Assembly: GCA_036172245.1 (NCBI GenBank)
Contig: JAYWIR010000053.1
Coordinates: 930,001-994,000, forward strand
DNA length: 64,000 nt
Direction: 5' to 3'
Origin: Raillietiella orientalis
Lineage: Eukaryota
Positions within the stretch are counted from its first letter, which is position 1. Each line of letters opens with the position of its first letter. A model generated the notes under the pieces. It made no database searches. It had not been told where the DNA came from and saw nothing but the letters and a program-made list of their open reading frames with translations. This document shows, piece by piece, positions 58,601-64,000 of the stretch. The translations under genes were made by a program, and so were the position numbers.

Positions 58601-61100
58601 ACGAGAGGCCGACGTCTTCCGAAACATCAAGTGAGGAATCGGCGCGCTGGAGAAGAACATCTTCAAGGATGCGCTCTAAATGCAGTACGAAGACCAAGTT
58701 TTGCACACGTAGGGAGGAATCGTAAAAGCTTTCCAGAAGCACTGAACTTCCTACTTTCCACAAGATCTCTGCCCAGCAGAGCACAGGGTCATCATGCACC
58801 AGCTGTACAGAAAATTGATCCAGCTGCAGCAAGCTTGGCTCGACGATGAAATTTCCATGGAAAAAGTGAAGAGCGCGCTCGCAGGTCTACGCAAGGACGT
58901 GGCGGCAGGCCTCGATCGTGTGTCCATCTCCCACTATCAAAGGTACCCATACGCCTGCCTACGTCGGTTCCAGGAACTCACACTATGCATCCAGGAAGAA
59001 CACCGGCTCCCGGCTTTGTTTACCGAAGCAGGATGCGACTATTGCCCAAGACAAGCGAACTGACGAAAGTCATCCTGTAGCGGCCAATCTACGTTCTCCA
59101 CTCAGATGCCAAGAGATCTGGTATAGCCGCTTGAGTGCGCTTTCACCAGTGCTCGTCTCTCCAACCTAGACGTGCGCGTTGCCAGGATGCCTCGATGAGA
59201 AGTGTGCCTAGCAAGCCCCGGTTACAGCCGGCATATTGGCGATGGCCTGGTTCTGGGCTTCCCGTATATAGAGAAGACCTTCGACACTGTAGACCATAGG
59301 ATACTGCTCAAGATACTGAAGAAATTGGGCTTCCAGAGATACTTCAGCCAGCAAGCGGAGAGAATACTCGAGGAGCAGTGCTTCGGGATCTCAACGAACG
59401 GATCAGACACAGGCACAATGCGGATAGGGAGGGGAATTTGCCAAGGAGACGCCCTCAGTTTGATACTGTTCGTCATATGCCTGGAGGCTGTGTCGTCGCT
59501 GGTAGAGACAGAGGCGGTCGCCTTCGAGGAATTTCCAATGATGAATGCAGACTGACTCATCTAGGGTAAACAGACGATCTTCTCTTCTTCCTCAAGGACG
59601 AGAGGATCAGCTGCGTTCCTCGGTGTAATCAATTCTGTGGGAAAGTCCTTAAGATCAGTGCCCAGATGTTGCAACTCTTATTCACCAGGATCCTGGTTTT
59701 CTGCACATTAAGGGTGAAGGGAGTTCGAGTGGCGAATGGAGTCAATTATCTAAGAATCCACATCAACGACATCTCAACCGCGCACATTTTGTGGAAAGAA
59801 ATCCCAGAGAAAGCAGGAGAAGCATCAGCAAAGTACATCCAGGACGACTTTGGCATGGAGCAAGCGCCAACTTGCGGAATGGCGTTCGATTTCCCAAGGT
59901 GCTCTATGGAGCAACCTTCAGCCCAATGCACAAGACTCGGATGGAAGTGGAACCGTTGCAGAGAAAGCTTCTGTAGAGACACTGTAAACCGGGGTGAAGC
60001 TTGTATCATCCTCAAGGTGATAGAATGAGGTCTCTGGCACACTCTATGGAAATCATGTACCCTGGTAACTCCTGAATCTTACTCAGCGATTGGGGCAGGT
60101 GGCCATTTGCTGTGCACAGCACCCACTCGAGGTTGCTGAGCGGCTCCAGTGGCTTGAAGCAATCACAGGCCAAACAGAAGTGGGTGAACATCGATCCCAC
60201 GTGGGAAAGAAAAGACACTGGTGAAAATTTACCAAGTCAAAATGGCGCCTAGGAGCACAGAGCCATGAGAGGAAGAACTGGCCTCGGTAATGCCTTGCTC
60301 CCTTCCCATTCCACGGAAAACGTGGTATGGATAAGCGAAAATCCTAGGCTGAAAATCCGGGATTACAAGCAGTTCGTTAACAGTGGCAACTTTTGTCAGA
60401 TGCGACAGTTCAGATACATCCAGCAGGTGAAAGGAAGATACAACCACAAGAGGCATGAGCTTTGGAAGAATCTTACATCTTGTGCGTGGATGCTGATCAC
60501 GAAAGCTAACATTCGGGATGAAATCTTGAATGCACACAAGGACAACTCCCTCGCAATGTGAACCTGCGAGCGGTTGGAGCGACCGTTTGGAGGAGTGTCC
60601 ACGATGCCCTGCTTGTCCTTTACCACGAAGCCGTCCTGAGAGGTTCCAGGACAAAACATCAGAAGGAAAATCTGCAAGATGAGATCTGCGTGGCGTTTTT
60701 TTGGAGACAGGGAAACCCAGCTCCACGTCCTCAGCTCCCTGACGTTGCAATGATATTGGAAGGCACTCAAGGCAATGACAGATCTGCAGAGCAGCACGAG
60801 GATGACGATCCCGGCAGGACTGTTTAAAAGGAGACGGAAATGTTTCTCGATAAATCCCACGGCCAGAACAAAAGTCGCTCACTTGATCACGAGCATCGTG
60901 ATCACAAGATGGAAGCAACAGAAAAATGCAGCTCCAGCAATGAAAATAGTGAATGAAGAGCTCCTGAAAAAGAGATAGGACTTAAAAGCTGCGCAAGAAT
61001 CCAAGCCTAAACAAAACTGAAGAAAACTTCCACATGCGAGGGAACTCCAGTGTCCCCTAGTGCAAACCGTCACACCAAAGCCAACCAATATAAAGTGTAA
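55630..61100 (+). mobile_element. Near full-length but inactivated L1/Tx1-type LINE (ORF1 relic, APE, RT, C-terminal Cys motif)
   Basis: RT motifs appear in order: SALAGLRKDVAAGLDRV (58870), RPIYVLHSDAK (59082), IEKTFDTVDHRILLKILKKLGF (59268), GRGICQGDALSLILFVICLE (59426), HLG*TDDLL (59558, YADD) and VNYLRI. CPRC lies near 60595. APE and ORF1 relics at 55650-57900 are weaker. Confidence 0.85.
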
Positions 61101-62630: not shown

Positions 62631-63588
62631 TTACCCAATGCACCATGAGAAATGAACAGCATACGAGCATATTCGACATGGTCTCATTTTAATAGCTAGG
62701 CAACAGCCCTGGTATTTGGAATCGAAGATGATTCCATTCTTCAGTGATTCTATGAAGCCGTATTGCACGTGCCCCACATCATCTTTTGTGAAGTCGACGA
62801 CAGTAATTCGCTCTCCGTTGTATAGGTGGGCTGCATCAGCCTTCCTACAGGAGTGCATGTATATTGCGTCCTTTTTCAGAAATAAAAACGGGGCCATGGT
62901 TGTTTTGCCAGTGTTGCCACAGGTATCGTGACACCAGTGGATTTTTCGTGGATTGGCTTTGCGGCGGATGATGTCCACAATATCCATTTGCCGCTGTTTG
63001 AGTTGGAGCTTTGCCATGGGGTTAGGGTGTTGTCTGGTCCTTGACAGCCGAAAGCACACTTTTATGAAATTTACATTTTTCGAGTAAAACTGTGTGTGAT
63101 TTTTTAAAATGTAGAGCTCGTCTGCTCCGTTTTCGATGAGTTGCAGGATCTGAAAGAGGAGAATTTGATTTTATCGTCATCGGTTTTTGGTAACGAACCT
63201 GTTCTTGGTATGATTTTGGTTCGGTGCTTTCGTTGAGAGATCCGTGTGTCCAAGGATTCCTATCTTCTTTACTGCAGTACCGAATGTCGCTCTGTGGCGT
63301 GCCTTCTGCTCGCTCCAAGTGAGTCTTATGGAATGGTTTGCGGTGCGAACCGGGCAAAGTTCTCGGTCCCTTGAGTTGCCTGGAGCCTTGCAAGTGAGGC
63401 GTCCCGGTCTCAGCTGGTTCGCGTCCAATGCAGGCGGAGCAGCACTTCAGTCGGCACCATCGCTTGATGTCTTTGGATTCTTGCTCGGTGCAATTGCAGA
63501 AAGTGATGCACCAATTGAAGTTAAGTGCGTAAGGCACAGTGACGTACGCGAAATTCACTGAAGGTAAGACTGCGGTGTGGAGGTTCAT
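62631..63588 (-). CDS. rep: CRESS-DNA-virus-like replication initiator Rep (HUH endonuclease + SF3 helicase), endogenous; predicted spliced join(63588..63199,63149..62631), 302 aa
   Basis: Motif I WCITFCN, motif II TPHLQG, motif III HLERAEGTPQSDIRYCSKE, Walker A GNTGKTT, Walker B ITVVDF, and YGFIESLKNGIIFDSKY. Removing a 49-nt GT-AG intron joins the two ORF-track frames without a stop. Helicase motif C is not recognisable. Confidence 0.92.
63150..63198 (-). other. Predicted 49-nt phase-0 spliceosomal intron in rep
   Basis: Donor CAG|GTTCGT, branch-like ATGAC, polypyrimidine tract and acceptor TTCTCCTCTTTCAG|ATC. Removal restores the frame exactly (130 codons plus exon 2). Confidence 0.8.
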
Positions 63589-63593
63589 GGTGG

Positions 63594-63601
63594 TTTATAT
63601 A
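63594..63601 (-). promoter_or_regulatory. TATA box of rep
   Basis: The minus strand reads TATATAAA between the origin hairpin and rep. Confidence 0.65.
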
Positions 63602-63631
63602 CTGGCTAACTGCGCAGTATTTTGTGTTAGC

Positions 63632-63659
63632 GCGATCTGGTCAGTATTACCCACATTGC
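63632..63659 (+). promoter_or_regulatory. Rolling-circle origin stem-loop with nonanucleotide CAGTATTAC (63642-63650)
   Basis: GCGATCTGG-TCAGTATTAC-CCACATTGC forms a 9-bp stem with one mismatch and one G-T pair. The loop fits NANTATTAC and lies about 55 bp from the rep start. Confidence 0.85.
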
Positions 63660-64000
63660 ACAGTAATCATCCGACACCGTGGGAAGCTGTTATGTAAGCA
63701 TTTTCATTTTGAGTGCCTGGTTTTTTTTATCCGCAGTCGTGGAGGACTTAGGGATGCGCAAAAGCGATATGCTTTCCAGCTCAAGTGTCTGGTTTCACCC
63801 GACCTCGTGGAAGGCTAGTGTAGTCGGGTGGGCATGGCCCACCAGCTCAGAGTTGAGAGGGGTGGGGGGATCGAAAAATCCTCAGCAAGCTTTCTAGAAG
63901 CCGAACGGTGGCGCTACGTCGTTTTGTCTCTCGAAAAACGAAGGCATCGAGTCATTCGAAATCGTGGAAGCGTCGTCGACTGACCAGATTGTGGTCCGGT

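Follow-up and report, generated by a model that had tools for sequence, protein, structure and literature searches.

Near one end of the 64,000-nucleotide stretch of DNA analysed here (the window), the minus strand carries the two halves of a viral replication-associated protein (Rep) in open reading frames that are out of frame with each other and 49 nt apart. It raises the question of whether these 49 nt are an intron or a broken piece of coding sequence, whether such an intron belonged to the virus or was gained in the host, and whether it gave two proteins in the manner of the Rep and RepA of geminiviruses and genomoviruses. Judging from the sequences compared, the intron is real, and it was probably borne by the virus, most likely being spliced constitutively.

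The viral fragment and its host genome

The first exon of Rep (63199..63588, minus strand) encodes the HUH endonuclease in 130 stop-free codons, with motif I (W26), motif II (PHLQG) and motif III (Y104). It matches the Pfam family Viral_Rep (PF02407) at E 6.5e-7, the sole Pfam match of the Rep at E <= 0.1, with no match to a geminivirus family, and its PDB matches are endonuclease domains of circoviruses (E 1e-7 to 1e-5) and nanoviruses. The second exon (62707..63149, minus strand), delimited by genome matches and paralogues, encodes the oligomerisation domain, Walker A (approximately 62918-62898) and Walker B, and its Atlas matches are Cressdnaviricota clusters. The frame from 63149 is open through Walker A down to a stop at 62631, and homology to the paralogues stops at about 62707, just past the helicase KY; helicase motif C and the arginine finger are present in the paralogues and absent from the window copy. 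The possibility of another intron at 62707 was dismissed, as the paralogues continue in frame there. The gene is thus cut off in the helicase, so that no complete Rep could come from the window copy even if it were spliced, and for this truncated fossil itself the intron matters little. An ATG lies 8 codons before motif I in 17 of the 24 copies in which motif I was located. The corresponding position in the window is approximately 63537, where there is no ATG; the sole in-frame ATG of the window copy, at 63588, lies 5 nt behind a TATA-like box (63594..63601, minus strand) situated between the origin and Rep, and many copies have such a box at a similar position, 79-100 nt before motif I. In paralogous Reps the arginine finger is followed by a C-terminal tail, conserved and rich in Ser and Pro, that is 50 residues long or more and shares sequence with the convergent capsid gene at the 3' end of the latter (L003, L006, L007, L009, L012, L015, L020).

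The viral fragment as a whole (62707..64000 and on to approximately 64272 past the window edge, without a single strand) measures about 1.57 kb by blastn against the paralogues (62707-64272). It lacks both of its ends and lies within a host repeat: its left and right flanks match, at 69-78% identity, one paralogue of that repeat about 8 kb further on, which is empty of virus. The replication-origin hairpin (63632..63659) is on the plus strand, opposite Rep, with the nonanucleotide CAGTATTAC at 63642-63650, and it is also present in 8 other loci among the first 20. Its stem has decayed in the window copy (-1.2 kcal/mol) and is intact in the paralogues (-5.1 to -10.2 kcal/mol in 8 hairpins). Beyond it starts the capsid arm (63856..64000 and past the window edge, plus strand), whose Arg-rich N-terminus is frameshifted in the window copy. 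Paralogous capsid ORFs reach 317 codons without interruption, and that of L043 (308 aa, open) matched Cressdnaviricota clusters with a score of 0.96, Circo_capsid being annotated on 14-49% of the members of those clusters. Family-wide, then, there is a Rep with HUH endonuclease and SF3 helicase, a NANTATTAC hairpin, a capsid gene and host flanks, in an ambisense arrangement with NAGTATTAC on the capsid strand as in the layout of Circoviridae (Cyclovirus). By these sequence features, the window element is a decayed, 3'-truncated endogenous CRESS-DNA virus of cyclovirus-like layout. Between origin and capsid, the window (63700-63860) and its paralogues share a conserved stretch with one open frame (about 70-120 codons) in many copies; it may represent an additional small ORF or have a regulatory role. 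Two origins are found in several insertions, which form tandem or head-to-tail arrays (L015, L020, L043; clustered matches on C4, C40, C68, C33 and C72), as expected from the integration of rolling-circle concatemers.

The genome that holds these copies is 210 Mb in size and has animal-type actin. Its COX1 is 77% and 76% identical to Armillifer and 75% identical to Linguatula, other matches reaching 71-74% and coming nearly all from insects. In a tree that carries a long-branch warning and from which crustaceans other than pentastomids are absent, this COX1 groups with pentastomids (SH-aLRT 99). The host thus groups with pentastomids and is referred to here as a pentastomid-like arthropod, a placement that rests on COX1 with long branches. 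With regard to a nematode host, a search of the genome for SL1, run without a positive control, gave no match. The 54 COX1 matches in the genome mean that nuclear DNA carries this mitochondrial gene in many copies, which suggests a genome prone to taking up foreign DNA. A fragment of a non-LTR reverse transcriptase lies in the window at 59199-59555 (plus strand; RVT_1, E 7.6e-6), and LINE-like endonuclease sequence adjoins several of the virus copies (L003, L011).

The 49-nt intron and its origin

The 49 nt (63150..63198, minus strand) form a GT-AG intron of phase 0 by their sequence, by conservation of the site in paralogues and by the size of host introns. The intron begins with GTTCGT, a weaker donor than GTAAG, which most copies have, and its final CAG is preceded by a pyrimidine run; exon 1 ends and exon 2 starts on a codon boundary, as checked for each half separately. 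Twenty-eight paralogues, some of them near-duplicates, have both flanks (out of 32 different acceptor contexts that the first set of loci gave), and at the same codon GT is found in 27 of the 28 and AG in 25, or in 26 if L035, whose AG lies 4 nt earlier, is included. Their introns range from 36 to 55 nt and fall into all three length classes modulo 3 (10/13/5), and median pairwise identity is 0.51 inside the intron as compared to 0.63 and 0.72 in the flanks. A GT-AG pair was also found in 27 of 35 further, mostly more diverged copies, two having displaced donors that are probably decayed. Host introns are similarly short: 59 introns predicted by spliced protein-to-genome alignment, with some boundaries imprecise, in ten actin-family and chaperonin genes have a median of 47 nt, and 40 of the 59 are 55 nt or shorter. 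The 49 nt of the window are therefore confirmed, to the extent that comparison of copies can do so, as a real U2-type spliceosomal intron beyond chance, since the same gap with GT...AG stands at the same codon in paralogues; the GT donor, the YAG acceptor with its pyrimidine tract and a size within the host range are those of a U2-type intron. The proposal of an earlier note on this DNA, that a 49-nt intron joins the two Rep ORFs, is borne out: taking out 63198-63150 restores the frame, in phase 0 and without a stop.

The genome has at least 151 matches to the helicase half of Rep and at least 106 to the endonuclease half, and many of the helicase-half matches begin at residue 1. When the halves were paired by coordinates, 41 of the 42 tightly bounded copies had a gap of 36-55 nt and the remaining one had a gap of 219 nt, so that none was near 0. 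One search of the genome with an exact pattern found no intronless (processed) copies. A looser set of 66 pairs included five gaps of 21 nt or less, three of which are extrapolation artefacts or deletions with intron sequence visible; a fourth copy (L014) has a 47-nt intron and the fifth is a deletion across the junction. A search for branch-point motifs in the introns found none at a fixed position. Among the paralogues, those of the most diverged virus sub-clades (L060-L068, for example C5:2318328-2318365) carry introns that measure just 36-40 nt, near the bottom of the host range, and in two copies (L072, L073) the intron has expanded to 166 and approximately 219 nt. The diverged copy L055 (C43:1278528-1278565) has at the site a stop-free stretch of 36 nt that starts with GC and lacks an AG, and this may be decayed or possibly an exonised intron. 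Within the host, the very short introns (median 47 nt) belong to AT-rich actin-family and chaperonin genes (L022-L025, L101-L107), and two GC-rich actin genes have longer introns of 60-195 nt.

Both frames are open around the site in the window copy, as would also be seen if the 49 nt were coding sequence of the linker, disrupted by a frameshift, whether simple or programmed. However, the three length classes, the internal stops (in 14 of 28 copies) and the fixed splice dinucleotides of the paralogues exclude a frameshift, to which we assign next to no probability. The alignment to viral Reps that had been proposed as a check agrees with this. The two halves were aligned separately to 150 library Reps, and in the 34 for which both ends could be scored the continuous proteins are colinear with the spliced form, the implied gap at the junction having a median of 0 and lying between -4 and +7 residues in 29 of the 34. 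The spacing between motif III and Walker A, with a median of 108 in 102 homologues versus 104 in the spliced and 120 in the retained form, is not a sharp test, being 118 or more in 20 of the 102. The unspliced product aligned past residue 135 in 26 of the 150 homologues.

As to the origin of the intron, 19 ungapped paralogues compared to the window copy gave pN/pS of 0.12-0.37 (median 0.23) at pS of 0.44-0.96, synonymous sites among the copies being near saturation. A median of 0.23 at pS values this high shows that the copies diverged under coding selection. Moreover, a branch with an SH-aLRT of 93, below the tool threshold of 95, separates 49 copies from the 60 best library Reps, all of them unnamed, in a quick tree of 148 columns. 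The intron is present in both of the deepest sub-clades (L062, L065 and L068, and the rest). Since one site is shared by all sub-clades of a single virus clade that diverged under coding selection, we infer from the fossil copies that the intron was carried by the viruses and not gained in the host, and the simplest reading is that it was gained once, in the ancestor of the virus lineage. It has the modal intron size of the host, and its interior has drifted while GT and AG were kept.

The earlier note had also considered that the intron was gained in the host. This would mean that the host acquired it after one insertion and that the copies then multiplied in the genome as a transposon-like element, for which one may point to an intron of host size and composition (GC 0.32 versus 0.36 in short host introns) and to the free relatives that were searched for and not found. 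But host-sized introns are to be expected in a virus that uses the host spliceosome, the differences between copies are mostly at synonymous sites, and the copies retain long uninterrupted capsid ORFs as well as origin hairpins, with ends that differ from copy to copy. We consider a host gain very improbable, and that suggestion went unsupported. The searches for free viral relatives confirmed none in viral_contigs with the helicase half, gave one weak match there with a profile and none with the capsid, and found none in metagenome_contigs with P0122 as query; word-based protein searches likewise gave no free relative for the helicase half or the capsid. P0122, the best profile match (E 1.5e-46), was rejected as a relative, as its score comes from a duplicated helicase segment and it lies outside the group of the copies in the tree. 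An IMG/VR relative of P0122, L059, has a continuous Rep.

On the favoured reading, the window holds a dead chromosomal piece of an ambisense CRESS-DNA virus whose lineage repeatedly infected a pentastomid-like arthropod. The ancestor of this lineage probably acquired a single U2-type intron where the endonuclease and oligomerisation domains of Rep meet, and in the living viruses the host spliceosome presumably removed it to give full-length Rep, splicing being, in this scheme, essentially obligatory in the lineage. From unspliced RNA one would usually expect a protein limited to the endonuclease, ending in a short, arbitrary tail; it was most likely a by-product and not a RepA kept by selection.

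The unspliced product

The unspliced frame of the window copy had been described as a nuclease-only protein of 188 aa. The frame is indeed open from the ATG at 63588 to 63022, and its read-through tail (63022..63198, minus strand) has 58 codons and then a stop (63024-63022); yet that ATG is not shared by the family and the tail is unique to this copy. Among the 28 copies, in which post-insertion decay blurs the counts, the retained tail ranges from 2 to 299 codons (5, 6, 6 and 24 in the four nearest relatives of the window copy), and a stop closes the retained frame already inside the intron in 14 copies and by codon 60 in 22, and in 6 the frame continues for more than 100 codons. Four canonical introns of 3n length are stop-free (L045, L048, L049, L054), so that read-through would give full-length Rep with an insert; the same holds for L084 and L085, and sister copies agree on it (L045 with L084; L049 with L054 and L085). 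In exon 2 the alternative frame is not maintained: a stop comes after a median of 13.5 codons. As neither the length nor the frame of the tail nor the alternative frame of exon 2 is conserved, a RepA-like protein with a selected tail is unlikely. The idea of Rep/RepA-style alternative products therefore gained little from the comparison, the more so as the Rep is of the Viral_Rep (circo/nano-like) type.

A purposeful endonuclease-only form, comparable to circovirus Rep', is possible though improbable, and here the position of the junction has to be considered. Exon 1 ends 26 residues after the motif III tyrosine, at residue 122 of the Rep of porcine circovirus 2 (PCV2), and exon 2 starts at PCV2 residue 122 or 123 by way of a conserved glycine and the bridging proteins P0171 and P0138. 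The splice donor of PCV2 Rep' we take to follow codon 122. With that donor codon, the intron would coincide, to within one residue, with the place at which circovirus Rep' diverges from Rep. Two PDB searches put the end of the alignment to Rep' (8H56) at residue 121, those to Rep extending to 137-140. The endonuclease of PCV2 Rep occupies residues 1-118 and its oligomerisation domain residues 119-157, as given in a passage of PMC10747457, so that the donor stands at this domain boundary, within one residue of 122/123.

It could be argued from this coincidence, reached by two anchors, that retention was regulated and that the virus made the spliced full-length Rep and an unspliced endonuclease-only protein on purpose, as a mirror of circovirus Rep', the short form serving either as an additional nickase or to repress the Rep promoter. 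PCV2 requires both Rep and Rep' (in part of the text of PMC8134455), and a 2026 preprint reports that Rep isoforms without the oligomerisation domain act in TYLCV as repressors of the Rep promoter and emerge in different CRESS families (excerpts of 10.64898/2026.02.19.706752); on the other hand, PCV Rep' does not repress the promoter, according to a passage in the review PMC2690592. The early end of the retained frame in 22 of 28 copies fits a short form but is also the default for any retained intron, the tail is conserved neither in length nor in frame, and six copies would read through to Rep with an insert while close relatives stop in the intron. Moreover, introns are tolerated at domain boundaries in any case, and the coincidence may be convergent. 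We therefore regard regulated retention as improbable. Doubtful, too, is the broader proposal of an undescribed family-level lineage of pentastomid CRESS viruses with its own intron at the circovirus Rep' donor boundary, whose retention gives a Rep'-like endonuclease-only protein. If it were true, animal ssDNA viruses would have at this boundary a splice switch, either recurrent or ancient, that has been used both ways.

For the virus-borne and most likely constitutively spliced intron that we favour, there are several implications. It would be an intron gain in a CRESS Rep documented by dozens of fossil copies, beyond single predictions, and it would tie a lineage of CRESS viruses to a host that is pentastomid-like. 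The match in size between a viral intron and the very short introns of its host is a possible signal for host prediction; term searches of two papers on the hosts of CRESS viruses (PMC9615429, PMC7493932) gave no mention of introns in the text covered. ORF-based searches can overlook split Reps of this kind. The agreement in position with the PCV2 Rep' boundary is also relevant to the recent proposal that Rep forms without the oligomerisation domain arose repeatedly in CRESS viruses.

Comparison with known Rep introns

One parallel in strategy is the rep of mastreviruses, becurtoviruses, capulaviruses, grabloviruses and genomoviruses, in which, as in the window lineage, full-length Rep needs splicing and unspliced RNA gives a shorter N-terminal product. 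In those viruses the intron probably sits further downstream, so that RepA keeps the oligomerisation domain. By contrast, the window lineage has a Rep of the Viral_Rep family (PF02407), an animal host and an intron of 36-55 nt at the start of the oligomerisation domain, with neither a geminivirus-type Rep nor a conserved C-terminal extension on the unspliced product. The suggestion that it shared the strategy of mastreviruses and genomoviruses does not agree with the Rep family and the unconserved tail. The Rep introns of geminiviruses and genomoviruses have been attributed to one origin and that of circoviruses to a second (Zhao et al., 10.1101/687855, in the part available), and the window-lineage intron looks like a further independent gain.

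Porcine circovirus Rep/Rep', a closer analogue than Rep/RepA, shares with the window lineage splicing at or next to the endonuclease/oligomerisation boundary, and its short product keeps motifs I-III and loses the helicase. However, the arrangement is the inverse. In porcine circovirus, one continuous ORF encodes Rep and splicing gives the short, frame-shifted Rep' (passages in PMC11639455 and PMC2690592), whereas in the window lineage the gene is split and splicing would give the long form, and use of the short form is improbable.

Cycloviruses resemble the window lineage in being ambisense, in carrying the nonamer on the capsid strand and in having putative GT-AG introns in rep. Introns of 56 nt in CN9E and 169 nt in RI107 have been predicted (PMC8622408, section 12; PMC9241739, in part). 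The CN9E intron, as described there, lies behind motifs I-II with 231 aa downstream and is thus earlier in the gene than that of the window lineage. Both are predictions from single genomes, whereas the window-lineage intron is backed by dozens of diverged copies.

A literature search, thin on subscription journals, found no paper on pentastomid endogenous viruses, on this lineage or on its intron. Endogenous CRESS-DNA elements of other invertebrates such as mites, ants and nematodes (portions of PMC6186406) likewise consist of decayed Rep, capsid and origin fragments. The window genome differs from these in its at least 151 helicase-half matches and in the lack of a close relative in the protein libraries searched, and the window lineage stands apart by its pentastomid-like host and by an intron that extends throughout the clade.
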